The notes under the pieces: model-generated
The model's input: only the letters and a program-made list of their open reading frames with translations
Databases searched by the model: none
Told to the model about the DNA's origin: nothing
Shown: piece by piece, positions 26,750 through 33,188 of the stretch
Numbering within the stretch: the stretch's first letter is position 1
Layout of the letters: each line of letters opens with the position of its first letter
Origin: an uncultured Candidatus Saccharibacteria bacterium
GTDB lineage: Bacteria > Patescibacteriota > Minisyncoccia > UBA11713 > 2-01-FULL-45-33
Assembly (NCBI GenBank): GCA_964422785.1
Contig: CAYRCJ010000004.1
Span: forward strand, 1-33,561
Direction: 5' to 3'
Length of the DNA: 33,561 nucleotides
Program-made: the position numbers and the translations under genes

Positions 26750-27634
26750 ATGAAAGTATTGCTTGTTGGGCTAGGTCAAATTGGTCTTGGTCTGATCGTC
26801 CCGGTTTTTAAAAAAGCGGGCTATACAATAGTGGGCACCGACGCAAGCTCGGAGCGCCTAGACAAACTTAAGAATGAATACCTTTTAAGAACCCCGGGCG
26901 GAGTGTCAACCATCGAAATTGACGTTGCCGGCATGGACGATATAAATGGAGAATTTGATCTGATTATTACTTCGGTCGGACGGCAGCATCTCCCAAGTGT
27001 TTCCGAGTGGCTCCTGAAAAAGAATTTGTCCGCGCCGGTTTTAATGGCGGAAAATTTGCCAGATCCTGTAAATCTTTTTCCAAAACAAATTCCGATTGTT
27101 GTTGATCGCATATGTCCGAGGATAAAAATGGAAGGAACTTTTTTGACTGTGGTGGCGGAAGATTATTATAAAATTATAGTTTTGGATACCCAGCTTACTC
27201 GCCGGCTCGGAGTTTTAAGCGGCGTGGATCTGGAAAAATCTGAAGCGGTTCTGGAGTATAAGCGACGGCTGAAAATGTTTACGGTAAATACTTCGCATGT
27301 AATCACGGCCCTTTATGGCCAGCGGTTTAATTGTTCGTTGGTTGAGGAAGCGGCCGCGAGACCGGAAGTCGCCGGCAAGATTCGCTCAGCGATCGGCGAA
27401 GTCAGCCCTTGGCTCAGTTTTGGTAATCGTGAGGCCGAGATCAAGGCAAGGGAGATCATTGAGCGGTTTTCCAGTCCGATTAAGGATCCGCTTTCAAGAA
27501 TTCTTGGACCCACAAATCGTAAATCCGCCCTTCGATATATCGAAGTTCCGCTTCGGGCCGTTAAAGCATCTGGCTTTCCTGCCCCTACATTGGAGGAAGC
27601 TTATAGGATTATTAATAGCGAGCCGATTAATTAA
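26750..27634 (+). CDS. mannitol-1-phosphate 5-dehydrogenase-family (MtlD-like) oxidoreductase, compact
   Basis: 294 aa. From memory of E. coli MtlD these blocks correspond: GLGQIGLG~GAGNIGRG, MAENL~ACENM, VVDRICP~AVDRIVP, FTVNTSHVITALYG~FTLNTGHAITAYLG, RFSSPIKDP~RFENPYLKD. Confidence 0.6.
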   Translation: MKVLLVGLGQIGLGLIVPVFKKAGYTIVGTDASSERLDKLKNEYLLRTPGGVSTIEIDVAGMDDINGEFDLIITSVGRQHLPSVSEWLLKKNLSAPVLMAENLPDPVNLFPKQIPIVVDRICPRIKMEGTFLTVVAEDYYKIIVLDTQLTRRLGVLSGVDLEKSEAVLEYKRRLKMFTVNTSHVITALYGQRFNCSLVEEAAARPEVAGKIRSAIGEVSPWLSFGNREAEIKAREIIERFSSPIKDPLSRILGPTNRKSALRYIEVPLRAVKASGFPAPTLEEAYRIINSEPIN

Positions 27635-27640
27635 ATTAAA

Positions 27641-27666
27641 AGAGGGGAAATTACCCCTCTTTTTTG
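27641..27666 (+). terminator. rho-independent terminator
   Basis: AGAGGGG / AAATTA / CCCCTCT followed by TTTTTG. Confidence 0.7.
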
Positions 27667-27686
27667 TTTATGTTATACTCCATAGT

Positions 27687-28262
27687 ATGGACGGAAAGCA
27701 TATACATCTGAAATATAAGATTTGCGTTTCTGGAGCGGCCGAGACCGATTTTTGCGCTCCCGATTCTTTAGAGAAAGGCAAAGAGCTGGGAAAGGAAATA
27801 GCTTCGCATAATTCCGTTTTAGTTACCGGGGCTACCACCGGTTTTCCGATGTGGGCGGCGATGGGCGCTAAAGAAGCCGGAGGATTTTCTATTGGTTTGT
27901 CTCCGGCGGGCTCCGAAAAAGAACATATAGAAAATTATAAACTGCCGATAGATTTTATGGATGTAATTATTTATACCGGCTTTGGATATTCCGGCAGAAA
28001 TCTTTTGCTTACCAGATCGGCGGATGCGGTAATCTTCGGATGTGGCCGCTGGGGCACTCTAAATGAGTTTACAATCGCGCTTGAAGACGGAAAGCCAATG
28101 GGGGTTTTGGAAGGAGAAGAAGAGGGGAGCATGGACTTGGTGAAAGATATTTTGGAAAAATCTCACCGCGGTCCCGGAAATATTGTTTATGATAAAGATC
28201 CAAAGGCTTTGGTGGAAAAAGTTTTGGAACTTATTAAAAAAGAAAAAATTATTAAAGTTTAA
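27687..28262 (+). CDS. TIGR00725/LOG-like (SLOG Rossmann) family protein
   Basis: The ATG at 27687 (MDGKHIHLKYKICVSGAA...) follows the terminator. The track ORF from 27315 reads through mtlD-like and the terminator. LVTGATTGFPMWAAMGAKEAGG and GRWGTLNEF blocks. Confidence 0.7.
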   Translation: MDGKHIHLKYKICVSGAAETDFCAPDSLEKGKELGKEIASHNSVLVTGATTGFPMWAAMGAKEAGGFSIGLSPAGSEKEHIENYKLPIDFMDVIIYTGFGYSGRNLLLTRSADAVIFGCGRWGTLNEFTIALEDGKPMGVLEGEEEGSMDLVKDILEKSHRGPGNIVYDKDPKALVEKVLELIKKEKIIKV

Positions 28263-29871: not shown

Positions 29872-30462
29872 ATGTTCGATTTAGTTTCACTAATAAAAAC
29901 TGCCGGATACTTGGGGATTTTCGCGATTATCTTTGCTGAATCTGGAGTTTTGGTGGGTATTTTTTTTCCGGGAGATTCTTTGCTTTTTACAGCAGGCCTT
30001 TTGGCTTCCCAGGGATTTTTAAATATTTTTATACTAATACCAGTCATTTTTTTAGCCGCGGTCTTGGGGGATAATTTTGGTTACTTTTTTGGAAAAAAGA
30101 TAGGGCCGAAAATCTTTACCAAAGAAGACTCCTTTTTCTTCAGCAAAGATCATATTGTAAGAGCCGAAAGTTTTTATGAAAAGTATGGCAAAAAGACTAT
30201 AGTCATTGTGCGCTTTATTCCTGTCATCAGAACTATTGCTCCGATATTGGCGGGAGTGGGTAGGATGAAATACTCTGTTTTTTTTATTTTTAATATCATG
30301 GGCGCTTTTCTTTGGGGTGTAGCAATCACATGGGCCGGATACTATTTGGGAAAAGTATTGCCCAATTTTGATAAACTTATTTTGCCCATCGTTTTGGGGA
30401 TTATTATTGTTTCTACAATTCCCGCGATTTTCTTTGCCAGGGGAGCCAAAAAGACCCATTGA
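29872..30462 (+). CDS. dedA: DedA family (SNARE-associated) membrane protein
   Basis: 196 aa, GYLGIFAIIFAESGVLVGIFFPGDSLLFTAG ... FIPVIRT. Confidence 0.88.
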   Translation: MFDLVSLIKTAGYLGIFAIIFAESGVLVGIFFPGDSLLFTAGLLASQGFLNIFILIPVIFLAAVLGDNFGYFFGKKIGPKIFTKEDSFFFSKDHIVRAESFYEKYGKKTIVIVRFIPVIRTIAPILAGVGRMKYSVFFIFNIMGAFLWGVAITWAGYYLGKVLPNFDKLILPIVLGIIIVSTIPAIFFARGAKKTH

Positions 30463-30486
30463 CAAATATTTTAAAAGGAGTATAAT
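30459..30486 (+). promoter_or_regulatory. near-consensus sigma70 promoter for the DGR target gene (TTGACA-N16-TATAAT)
   Basis: TTGACA at 30459-30464 overlaps the dedA stop. TATAAT at 30481-30486. Both hexamers are perfect consensus. Confidence 0.65.
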
Positions 30487-30516: not shown

Positions 30517-30568
30517 TTCGCCACAGCAAAAAGAGGCTTACTTATAAGCAGTTTTTTGCTGTGGCGAA
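30517..30568 (+). promoter_or_regulatory. long hairpin in the 5' leader of the DGR target gene
   Basis: TTCGCCACAGCAAAAA (30517-30532) pairs perfectly with TTTTTGCTGTGGCGAA (30553-30568), 16 bp. The 20-nt loop contains a further GCTTA/TAAGC 5-bp stem. No T-run follows. Confidence 0.6.
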
Positions 30569-30628: not shown

Positions 30629-31291
30629 ATGAGCGATGATTTGATGCTCGATGTTGGACAAGCAAACGAATTAAAACTTTCTTTCCGCCGGAATGGGTGG
30701 AAGACAAATGAGGAAATCAAGCGTTTGAGTGAAGGAAGTTTGCTCGCCGGCGTTTTGAGTGTCCTCAACGGCACCGCCAAGATCAAACCCATCACCGAAG
30801 ACGCCTCTCGCTGGATCACTCTCAACGAAACCACCATCGCTGTAAACCTCGCCGCCACTCCGAACCTTCCGTTCAACGAAGCAAAAATCGAAAAACATAT
30901 CGGCGAAGGTTGGGTAATTGTTGAAAAACGACCCGACGGACTCTACATCAGCGGCCGCAAAGTAATCATCCACCTCTCCAAACGCCAAAGGGGCGCAAAA
31001 TCACTGGGTGGCCATGAACTTCGCGATGAACTTACAGGAAAACCAGTCCTCAATTCCAACATCCTGGACGCTCTTTATGGGAATCCGCATTTGATTCCCG
31101 AAGACTGGAAGAAAGATGAAAATGGAAACACCATCTACATTTTCTTCTGGGGCACCCTCTACCGCGACTCGGACGTCAATCTCTACGTTCGTTGCTTATA
31201 CTTCTTCGGTGGCAGGTGGTACCGGCTCTACGGTTGGCTTGACTACGGTTGGAGTGGCAATAACCCTGCGGCTTTGCTCGCAAGTATTTAG
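30629..31291 (+). CDS. DGR variable (target) protein, 220 aa, VR at the extreme C-terminus
   Basis: AGGAG RBS 7 nt upstream. The last ~41 codons are the VR copy of the downstream TR. No signal peptide or TM segment visible. N-terminal ~175 aa unrecognised. Confidence 0.88.
   Translation: MSDDLMLDVGQANELKLSFRRNGWKTNEEIKRLSEGSLLAGVLSVLNGTAKIKPITEDASRWITLNETTIAVNLAATPNLPFNEAKIEKHIGEGWVIVEKRPDGLYISGRKVIIHLSKRQRGAKSLGGHELRDELTGKPVLNSNILDALYGNPHLIPEDWKKDENGNTIYIFFWGTLYRDSDVNLYVRCLYFFGGRWYRLYGWLDYGWSGNNPAALLASI
31160..31283 (+). repeat. DGR variable region (VR)
   Basis: 124 nt aligning without gaps to 31644-31767. There are 14 mismatches, all where TR has A. It ends 5 nt before the stop codon. Confidence 0.92.
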
Positions 31292-31297
31292 TTCTTC

Positions 31298-31340
31298 GGA
31301 CTAGGCCACTTTGACCTTTTTGAAACTTTGGCCTTAGTCC
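31298..31340 (+). other. hairpin 15 nt downstream of VR (candidate DGR target-recognition cruciform)
   Basis: GGACTAGGCC (31298-31307) pairs with GGCCTTAGTCC (31330-31340), 10 bp with a 1-nt bulge and a 22-nt loop. Confidence 0.45.
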
Positions 31341-31379
31341 TTTGATTCCGAATTTTGGGAAATATAAATTTGTTTCCAG

Positions 31380-31405
31380 CCCCGCATCTTGCGGGGCCTT
31401 TTTTT
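31380..31405 (+). terminator. rho-independent terminator of the target gene
   Basis: CCCCGCA / TCT / TGCGGGG, then CC and a T7 run. Confidence 0.8.
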
Positions 31406-31643
31406 GTGATAAAATAAAAAAGGCAGTAGGTGAATACGCGAGAGACTACGGTTTCTCGCTACCGAAACCAGTATCCATACATCGAGAGTATCTACGACTA
31501 AGGTTTTGGATAGAGTGGTGTATGCAGAAACTTCATCAAAAAATGAAAATACTTGGTGTAAGGCACTATCGCATTACGATGCGGAATTCTATACAATCCT
31601 GAGAGTATTCGAAGGATGGTGGCCCGGGAGGTGCTTTACACGC

Positions 31644-31767
31644 AAACCGCAACTCGGACGACAATCTCTACGTTCGTTACTTATACTTCAACGATGGCAG
31701 GTGGTACCGGAACTACAATTGGCTTGACAACGATTGGAATGGCAATAACCCTGCGGCTTTGCTCGCA
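31644..31767 (+). repeat. DGR template repeat (TR), non-coding
   Basis: Invariant master copy of VR. In the VR reading frame it is rich in AAC/AAT codons (N R N S D D N L Y V R Y L Y F N D G R W Y R N Y N W L D N D W N G N N P A A L L A). Confidence 0.92.
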
Positions 31768-31774
31768 ACTCTTT

Positions 31775-32080
31775 TCATTTCTCTCCCAGCTTTTTGTTGG
31801 GAGAGTTTTGTTTACCATGAATTTGTTGAAGATCTTTCGCAAGCTGCCCGCTCCATCCTCCGAGCATACGCCCGATCTCATCTATTTTTACCGAAAGTGC
31901 TATATATTTTTTGTTGTCTATTGATTTTGTTTCCCATAAAACCATGAGCAATATTTTTAGAGTATCCATTTTTCTTATTGCCAATCTCACCCAGGGATGT
32001 TTCTCTTCTCTAGATAAAAAACTTGCAATAGATACGGCTTCTATTGTTTCTACAAAAAGAACGTCAATCCGCTGACCCAA
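31775..32080 (-). CDS. avd: DGR accessory variability determinant (Avd-like four-helix-bundle protein), 5' end uncertain
   Basis: The C-terminal helix KIDEIGRMLGGWSGQL matches the EVGRILGSWI helix of Bordetella phage BPP-1 Avd. LPKIHRHSLGQRIDVLF aligns with IPRKHGVAREMF. The frame stays open upstream to 32206 and encodes a plausible helix 1 (LLQKIKSAYLVWYGYYQALPK). No ATG/GTG/TTG occurs there, and the listed start at 32080 is a TTG. Confidence 0.8.
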   Translation of the reverse strand: MGQRIDVLFVETIEAVSIASFLSREEKHPWVRLAIRKMDTLKILLMVLWETKSIDNKKYIALSVKIDEIGRMLGGWSGQLAKDLQQIHGKQNSPNKKLGEK

Positions 32081-32172
32081 AGAATGCCGATGTATTTTTG
32101 GCAGAGCCTGATAGTATCCATACCAAACAAGATATGCACTTTTTATTTTTTGAAGAAGAGGTAGAACAGTGC

Positions 32173-32182
32173 GGGGGGGGGG
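32173..32182. repeat. G10 homopolymer (C10 on the avd strand)
   Basis: Ten consecutive G in an AT-rich genome. The tract lies inside the open upstream extension of avd and 13 nt upstream of the RT ATG. Confidence 0.9.
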
Positions 32183-32195
32183 TATTATATGGAAT

Positions 32196-33188
32196 ATGGC
32201 TTTGATTCAATTCGCCCATACATATAAGGATATCATTTCCTTGGAAAATCTACTCGAGGCCTGGAAAGAATTTATAAATGGCAAAAGATCTCGCAAAGAT
32301 GTCCAAGAGTTTGAGAGAAATTTAATGAATAATATAATTTCGCTACATCTGGATCTTGCGACAAAAATCTACAAACACTCTTCGTACGAGGCTTTCAACA
32401 TCTCCGACCCGAAGCCGAGAAACATTCACAAAGCAAGGGTGAGAGATAGATTGTTGCATCACGCAATCTATAGAAAATTTTATCCTTTTTTTGAAAGAAC
32501 ATTCATTGCAGATTCCTATTCATGCCGATTAAGAAAGGGTACACATAAAGCAATCAACGTATTTCACTCGTTTATAGGCAAAGAATCAAAAAATCATACA
32601 AAGACCGTCTTTGTCCTAAAGTGCGATATAAAAAAGTTTTTTGCAAATATTGATCACGGCATACTTCTGGAAATAATCAGAAGTTGTATCCCGGACCGCG
32701 ATATTCAGCGGCTTATATCGGAAGTTGTGGAGAGCTTTCATTCAACAAGCGTCGGCGTTGGGCTTCCTTTGGGAAATCTTACTTCCCAGCTTTTGGTGAA
32801 TATTTATATGAACAGATTTGACCAATTCGTGAAGCATAAGCTCAAAGCAAAATACTATATTCGCTATGCGGATGACTTTGTTATATTGTCGCAAGATAAA
32901 AAATGGCTTGAAGATATATTGCTTCGCATAAAAGATTTTTTATTGACTAATCTAAAACTAGAGCTTCATCCCGATAAAGTTTCCATTAAAACAGCGGCGT
33001 CCGGTATTGATTTTTTGGGGTGGGTTCATTTTTCCGATCACCGAGTTTTACGAACAACAACCAAAAAGAGAATGTTTAAGCGACTCGAAACATATTCTAA
33101 AAAGCCGGAGATGGTCAATTCATATCGCGGATTATTACAGCATGGCAATGCCTATAAAATTCTACAATTGATTGATGAAACAGGTTAA
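32196..33188 (+). CDS. DGR reverse transcriptase
   Basis: 330 aa from the ATG at 32196 (the track GTG at 32169 adds 9 aa across the G-tract). RT motifs: PKPRNIHKARVRDRLLHHAI, SYSCRLRKGTHKA, LKCDIKKFFANIDH, GLPLGNLTSQLLVNIYMNRFD (DGR-type [I/L]GxxxSQ), YIRYADDFVIL (YxDD), LELHPDKVSI, GIDFLGW. Confidence 0.95.
   Translation: MALIQFAHTYKDIISLENLLEAWKEFINGKRSRKDVQEFERNLMNNIISLHLDLATKIYKHSSYEAFNISDPKPRNIHKARVRDRLLHHAIYRKFYPFFERTFIADSYSCRLRKGTHKAINVFHSFIGKESKNHTKTVFVLKCDIKKFFANIDHGILLEIIRSCIPDRDIQRLISEVVESFHSTSVGVGLPLGNLTSQLLVNIYMNRFDQFVKHKLKAKYYIRYADDFVILSQDKKWLEDILLRIKDFLLTNLKLELHPDKVSIKTAASGIDFLGWVHFSDHRVLRTTTKKRMFKRLETYSKKPEMVNSYRGLLQHGNAYKILQLIDETG

Follow-up and report, generated by a model that had tools for sequence, protein, structure and literature searches.

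The protein encoded at positions 30629 to 31291 (+) of the window, by which we mean the whole 33,561-nucleotide stretch of DNA that was analyzed, is in the reading that we favor the variable protein of a complete Patescibacteria/CPR-type DGR. By analogy with other DGR targets, we consider it moderately probable that this protein acts as a stand-alone diversified ligand binder without an export signal, most likely situated in the cytoplasm or else leaving the cell by a route that is not written in its N terminus. Hardly any other group carries as many DGRs as Patescibacteria, and the window provides a clean, complete example of their dominant small target family.

Target gene, variable repeat, and template repeat

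The target gene, recognized as an open reading frame (ORF) together with its translation, encodes 220 amino acids and has a Shine-Dalgarno-like AGGAG 8 nt upstream of its ATG. A promoter-like site (TTGACA-16-TATAAT; 30459 to 30486, +), proposed purely for its match to the sigma-70 consensus at 12 of 12 positions, may drive its transcription, and an intrinsic-terminator-like hairpin followed by a T-run (31379 to 31405, +) would end the target transcript. We also observe an inverted repeat with 24-nt arms (30517 to 30568, +; 88% complementary, 4-nt loop), which sits between the consensus promoter and the target start codon, in the predicted 5′ untranslated region of the target mRNA.

The last 42 codons of the target protein constitute a variable repeat (VR) of 129 nt (31161 to 31289, +), which repeat comparison pairs with a template repeat (TR) of 129 nt (31646 to 31774, +) containing 33 adenines and 21 diversifiable codons. 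VR and TR are 88% identical (blastn E = 1e-43), and 13 of their 15 mismatches fall on TR adenines, all 13 of these being at codon position 1 or 2; with adenine occupying 33 of the 129 TR positions, the binomial probability that at least 13 of 15 mismatches fall on A is approximately 1e-6. The 13 adenine-directed differences show that the DGR has been active at this locus in the past. Together with the reverse transcriptase (RT) and the Avd-like frame alongside, the VR/TR pair and its adenine bias bear out the original prediction that this ORF is a DGR target. Nine of the 21 diversifiable codons are AAY, and approximately 2.4e17 different proteins are possible in total. No second VR was found within the window.

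The adenine-directed differences span positions 31166 to 31254 and are followed by an invariant, GC-rich VR segment of 29 nt (31255 to 31283), which we infer to act as the IMH. The remaining two mismatches, at 31284 and 31286, do not involve TR adenines; they are the final ones and come directly after this invariant stretch, and the VR-specific bases at these positions look like the distinction between IMH and IMH*. From the stop codon on, a reading of the sequence alone reveals a small hairpin (TAGTTC-TTCG-GACTA; 31289 to 31303, +), which occupies the position of the DGR target-site hairpin and is a candidate for that element. The diversified segment had been described as ending two codons before the stop, a boundary that needs to be drawn more finely: the part mutated at adenines ends at codon 209, codons 211 and 212 are still diversifiable, codons 213 to 218 are invariant, and the VR/TR homology reaches the stop codon.

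A large target family of Patescibacteria

The target protein has 328 relatives among 90%-identity clusters (E ≤ 1e-3), and all named relatives among these belong to Nomura-, Giovannoni-, Yanofsky-, Azam-, and Paceibacteria and similar lineages. A family profile retrieves 3,378 50%-cluster representatives at E ≤ 1e-3 and 2,242 at E ≤ 1e-10, and a scan of one genome per species yields 305 family loci; the 80 of these loci that were listed come nearly all from Patescibacteria lineages, with four carrying other or mislabeled names. Groundwater and aquatic metagenome-assembled genomes contain the family in abundance, and a Pfam annotation was found on none of the family relatives. Judged by these searches, the window protein is an ordinary member of a very large, unnamed, Patescibacteria-specific family of DGR targets.

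In the family alignment and its entropy profile, the N-terminal ~58 residues are variable, and a conserved core (residues ~60 to 178) and a hypervariable C terminus come after them. Hypervariable and conserved positions alternate across residues 180 to 212, and the C-terminal family consensus reads YRxxxGxLxVRxLxFxxGxWxRxYxWLxxxWxGxxPAALLAS. Among sequences that cluster at 90% identity or more, nearly all differences are found in the last 45 residues (24 of 24, 17 of 22, 14 of 18, and 13 of 16), which indicates that diversification takes place in natural populations. The N-terminal domain type of the window protein is the commonest one in the family and, in the sequences examined, recurs only at the N terminus of family members, at 35 to 71% identity.

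Export signals and localization

Signal sequences and transmembrane (TM) helices were assessed with Kyte-Doolittle hydropathy and lipobox-pattern heuristics. No 19-residue segment of the window protein reaches the Kyte-Doolittle value of 1.6 (the maximum is 1.07), its N terminus is acidic, no 9-mer within the first 30 residues exceeds a hydrophobicity of 0.51, and the first 40 residues contain no lipobox pattern. The protein had been described as showing no signal peptide, lipobox, or TM helix, and these heuristics agree, detecting no recognizable Sec, Tat, or lipoprotein signal and no TM helix. A Tat signal around “FRRNGW” was considered and rejected, since the family does not conserve the RR, which is moreover not followed by a hydrophobic region.

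The same picture holds for the family at large, as 231 of 264 family sequences (~87%) have soluble N termini (21 are truncated), and on these heuristics the signal-less state is the rule for the family. There are rare departures from it in the same set of 264 sequences: the heuristic scan finds a Sec-type signal peptide in P0136, a lipobox in P0150 and P0253, and a TM anchor in P0257, while a subfamily of about 20 sequences with the motif “DWK..GQFV..” has a hydrophobic N-terminal helix. All of these elements are fused directly to the same core, in place of the soluble N-terminal domain. Going by these predicted N termini, the core can evidently function beyond the membrane or outside the cell, which weakens a cytoplasmic reading; since exported and anchored members exist, an intracellular role is not to be assumed for the core module itself. 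The locus L089 (5001 to 5588) goes with these rare N-terminal variants (P0136, P0150, P0253, and P0257).

These variants are also the first argument for the strongest of the competing explanations, which we hold to be possible without considering it probable, namely, an adhesin that an episymbiont exposes on its surface or releases, and that would bind a changing host or particle surface after export without an N-terminal signal. Such export might proceed through a type IV pilus or type IV secretion-like machinery, through vesicles, or by lysis, with the N-terminal helical domain as an export or docking element. An adhesin would also be in keeping with the members P0121, P0125, P0167, and P0238, which are tandem arrays of two to four cores of ~150 residues separated by Pro-rich linkers, an arrangement that is common in surface proteins, and the literature favors host-interaction roles for the DGRs of this group (PMC8632793, PMC10907252). 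However, the great majority of the family sequences examined have soluble, signal-less N termini, and the lipoprotein variant P0253 is a singleton, flanked by rpoC and dnaG and without a DGR in its vicinity, for which a search for relatives returned only P0253 itself. The gene neighborhoods speak against an adhesin as well: the 134 neighbors of the 80 loci fall into 118 clusters, the largest of which has 3 members, so that there is no conserved neighbor gene, let alone a linked secretion gene, and the protein appears to be one without a linked secretion or effector partner. Our preferred reading remains that of a stand-alone binder without an export signal, with the location worded as broadly as above.

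Predicted structure and fold of the target protein

Sequence searches with the window protein gave no usable match in Pfam, NCBIfam, PHROGs, or PADLOC (the best PHROGs match, of unknown function, has E = 0.013), and the same searches with 48 relatives and with the multi-repeat relatives gave nothing usable either. Neither phmmer nor the family profile found a match among PDB sequences, and no FGE-sulfatase or DUF1566 match in Pfam was obtained for the 48 members at E ≤ 10. The N-terminal domain, which had been called unrecognizable, is indeed without a match in Pfam, NCBIfam, PHROGs, PADLOC, or PDB sequences, whether it is taken as a domain or as part of the whole protein, and no whole-protein homology to a characterized DGR target family emerged.

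An AlphaFold2 model built on a 48-sequence alignment has a mean pLDDT of 90.8 and a pTM of 0.79. In this model, residues 1 to 58 form a three-helix N-terminal domain (helices at 9 to 21, 27 to 34, and 38 to 46), which precedes the conserved core of about 160 amino acids (residues ~60 to 220). The first part of the core is predicted as a beta-rich subdomain of six strands (62 to 115), and the second part (118 to 217) as alpha/beta; from the last strand of the first part on, the DSSP order is E110-115, H128-135, H143-151, E171-179, E185-193, E196-203, and E214-217. When residues 104 to 220 are modeled alone, the pLDDT drops to 67.6 and the terminal strands lose confidence, which suggests that residues 60 to 220 are one cooperative unit.

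The diversifiable residues map to the loop 180 to 184, to alternate positions of the strands 185 to 193 and 196 to 203, and to the loop 205 to 212, while the final strand (214 to 217) is encoded by the invariant segment. Along the two predicted antiparallel beta-strands, variable residues alternate with conserved Leu, Val, Phe, Trp, Tyr, and Arg, and this alternation suggests a single diversified face on a fixed scaffold. This placement of the variable residues agrees with the way in which they are presented in known DGR proteins (PMC5006420).

With respect to the fold, Foldseek comparison of the full model with PDB and BFVD (viral protein structures) gave no match below E = 0.1 (best E = 0.2 in PDB and 0.1 in BFVD), the TM-scores of the full-model matches being ~0.1 to 0.3, and no C-type-lectin protein is among the Foldseek matches listed. 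The XLF/XRCC4 and BAH-domain matches, with TM-scores of 0.09 to 0.17, are regarded as noise. The model of residues 104 to 220 had no Foldseek match in PDB below E = 0.1, and hhalign comparison with Mtd and with a 121-sequence Mtd-family alignment was not significant (probability <1%); a 14-column local match of GKPVLNSNILDALY to GKRLPNYNEFQALA, at 0.4% probability, was set aside as a lead only. The original prediction had found the protein unassignable to the FGE/C-type-lectin consensus by eye, and sequence-profile searches and Foldseek alike leave it without such a match. The predicted order of elements is nevertheless compatible with the CLec topology beta1-alpha1-alpha2-beta2-beta3-beta4-beta5, in which, in the core of DGR proteins, beta1 is paired with the IMH-encoded beta5 (PMC5006420). 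Since the modeled fold has no structural neighbor, the designation of the core as a binding scaffold rests on analogy with other DGR targets.

A bolder interpretation takes the ~160-residue core as a new, non-CLec DGR scaffold and the signal-less majority of the family as intracellular, antibody-like binders in ultra-small episymbionts, which might bind phage or host-derived molecules, with the N-terminal three-helix domain docking them to a constant partner. We consider this interpretation rather unlikely. In the favored reading of a stand-alone diversified binder, the three-helix domain (residues 1 to 58) is likewise a separate, family-specific module that would dock the binder to a constant partner.

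Comparison with known DGR targets

None of the known DGR variable proteins is among the sequence or Foldseek matches listed for the window protein, and comparison with them therefore concerns host, size, and architecture. The survey published by Paul et al. in 2017 is said to have been the first of DGR targets in Patescibacteria. In the DGR targets of Patescibacteria, TM and conserved domains are typically absent according to Roux et al. (2021), who add “as previously reported” and leave it open whether such targets are genuinely non-membrane-bound; they expect new C-Lec variants among uncharacterized VR-overlapping domains (PMC8144416). The Patescibacteria “clade 2” targets of that study share with the window protein the host group, a small size, and a C-terminal VR, and both are devoid of a TM helix, a signal peptide, and a recognizable domain (PMC8144416). 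By host group and target features, the window protein is one of these “clade 2”-type targets, with no difference of kind. As summarized in PMC10907252, the commonest architecture that Paul et al. describe for this bacterial group is CLec fused to an AAA ATPase; the window protein differs from the architecture given there in having no AAA ATPase.

A further comparison is with AvpA of Nanoarchaeota (Handa et al. 2016; PMC5006420), which is also small (256 amino acids), also comes from an ultra-small presumed symbiont, and likewise has a fold that is unassignable from sequence and an invariant last strand encoded by the IMH. The VR of AvpA, however, is near the C terminus but internal, with 46 residues after it, whereas that of the window protein runs to the end of the ORF, and AvpA does not have the separate N-terminal helical domain that is present here (PMC5006420). 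The window protein can also be compared with Mtd of Bordetella phage BPP-1 and TvpA of Treponema denticola, where the VR also extends to the end of the ORF, the terminal strand is invariant, and AAY codons are the main diversified codons. Furthermore, the helix-helix-strand-strand-strand-strand order predicted for residues 128 to 217 is compatible with the FGE-type C-type-lectin fold of these two proteins. In contrast, Mtd is a trimeric tail-fiber protein and TvpA is a lipoprotein, and the window protein is found in neither context.

Predicted cytoplasmic DGR targets have been described from multicellular bacteria and from cyanobacteria, where CLec is combined with STAND NTPase, kinase, or MoxR-associated domains (PMC10907252; PMC7517822). 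The STAND NTPase/kinase-CLec targets resemble the window protein in having no export signals (PMC10907252). They differ from it in that cytoplasmic CLec targets carry or neighbor signaling or effector domains, whereas neither Pfam nor PADLOC finds an NTPase, kinase, or effector domain in the window protein, and the 80 loci show no conserved neighbor.

The cytoplasmic diversified binder is thus an established concept (PMC10907252). The idea that an intracellular binder of this kind would be functionally novel is not upheld, because signal-less targets of Patescibacteria (PMC8144416) and cytoplasmic targets elsewhere (PMC10907252) have already been described, and because the window protein is a typical representative of a huge target family found across Patescibacteria. 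The window instance alone establishes no new principle. What it adds is a confident model without a known structural neighbor, a family-wide alignment from which the variable face is defined, and an overview of the N-terminal variants, the rare exported ones included, and it makes two questions concrete, namely, whether these targets are truly non-membrane proteins and whether they have a CLec fold.

Reverse transcriptase, avd, and the state of the cassette

The DGR RT is encoded at 32196 to 33188 (+), in an ORF that opens with GTG at 32169 and has its likely start at the ATG at 32196. It matches RVT_1 (E = 7.5e-24) and phrog_1423 (E = 1e-102), and its translation contains the motifs LGNLTSQ and YADD, the SQ motif being a mark of DGR RTs. 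Profile matches and motifs together identify the enzyme predicted beside the TR as one of DGR type.

Between TR and RT, on the opposite strand, lies the frame of the accessory gene avd (31775 to 32164, −), which is uninterrupted from end to end and corresponds to the Avd model in its entirety, matching positions 1 to 102 of the 104 of DivGenRetAVD (E = 1.3e-16; 60.8 bits, which is below the NCBIfam cutoff of 80 bits) and a PHROG annotated as “Avd protein of DGR” (E = 1.4e-15). At its N terminus, no ATG, GTG, or TTG is found in the window; the codon at 32162 to 32164 is CTA, where the related locus L001 has TTG, and the first canonical start, a TTG at 32080, would yield a truncated protein of 101 amino acids. 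A homopolymer of ten G residues (32173 to 32182) is located in the short divergent intergenic region of avd and RT, beside the CTA codon.

Across the 80 related loci, the order target(+), ~450 nt, TR, avd(−), RT(+) is seen in 27, with avd on the opposite strand between TR and RT in all 27, and in 34 there is, downstream of the target, a TR whose mismatches are almost exclusively at adenines (e.g., 22 of 22, 17 of 17, and 21 of 21). Because the same order and adenine-biased TRs recur in related loci, the cassette of the window is the standard type of its lineage. Roughly 40 of the 80 loci (within L007 to L086) have neither TR nor RT within 4 kb on either side, which indicates remote or orphan copies of the family.

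The avd frame without a canonical start means that the DGR copy in the window may no longer be active, and it is an argument for regarding the cassette as decaying and the target as a frozen relic that retains one historical VR after diversification has ended. Related loci that keep a TR without an RT (L005 and L006), as well as those lacking both TR and RT within 4 kb, would fit such decay. We nevertheless judge it very unlikely, as the target ORF, TR, and RT are intact, as are the structured RNA, the hairpins, and the promoters, the frame of avd is uninterrupted and matched throughout, a non-canonical start or an error in the G10 homopolymer could explain the missing avd start, and the adenine-directed differences document past activity. 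In L005 and L006 (7057 to 7177), where the adenine-biased TR is kept, the next gene is an intein-containing gyrB and not avd or RT.

A conserved structured RNA and the proposed mechanism

Directly 5′ of the TR, RNAalifold predicts a conserved structured RNA domain (31429 to 31641, +) from an alignment of the window and 33 related loci. It comprises three helices, one of which is long-range and encloses two hairpins, and 43 of its 51 predicted pairs are accompanied by compensatory double changes in these 34 loci. No Rfam 15 family reached the gathering score when the RNA of the window and of 16 related loci was searched. The sub-threshold matches of the cassette were rejected: the terminator accounts for those to Trp_leader and GcvB, and the one to RT-7 is weak and partial (18 bits, compared with a gathering score of 116.8). 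Upstream of the TR RNA, a putative extended −10-like element (TG-n-TAAAAT; 31407 to 31415, +) corresponds to the consensus TGnTAnAAT that the alignment shows to be conserved at this place in related loci, and directly 3′ of the TR there is a 10-bp hairpin with a T-run (31781 to 31812, +), supported by compensatory changes in L001 and L005, which probably ends the TR RNA. If it does so, the cDNA-priming spacer would be very short and would overlap the antisense of the avd 3′ end.

According to bioRxiv 10.1101/2023.10.23.563531, the BPP-1 DGR needs RNA segments on both sides of its TR. By analogy, the structured domain is most likely the Patescibacteria-cassette equivalent of the TR-flanking RNA of BPP-1, and this conserved RNA 5′ of the TR, absent from Rfam, is a useful by-product of the analysis.

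Following the analogy with the BPP-1 DGR, we propose that a TR RNA of ~390 nt, composed of the structured 5′ domain, the 129-nt TR, and the terminal hairpin, would arise from a promoter of its own. On this RNA, the RT and Avd would synthesize cDNA, misincorporating nucleotides opposite template adenines, and the mutagenized cDNA would take the place of the final 129 nt of the target gene. Up to 21 codons could be changed in this way, and the resulting variable face would be displayed on the fixed, family-specific core of ~160 residues, where it may bind its ligand.

Genomic context

The flanks of the window are made up of housekeeping genes, encoding DedA/VTT, permease, MgtC, uracil-DNA glycosylase, ComEC, and NDK. 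We regard it as highly improbable that the target is a phage or prophage receptor-binding protein. Such a protein would need no signal peptide, since it would become part of virions in the cytoplasm, as does Mtd, which like many phage DGR targets has no signal peptide. The DGR cassette does occur in varied genomic contexts, as if mobile, but housekeeping genes flank the target in the window, the protein has no significant PHROGs match and no BFVD neighbor, and the neighbors in the 80 loci are mostly housekeeping genes, with no conserved phage genes among them.

Elsewhere in the window, the ORF at 26750 to 27634 has a weak match to the mannitol-dehydrogenase C-terminal domain, and its 3′ end is overlapped by the ORF at 27315 to 28262, which is SLOG cluster4/LOG-like over residues 133 to 299 and whose true start is probably located much further downstream than the one given.
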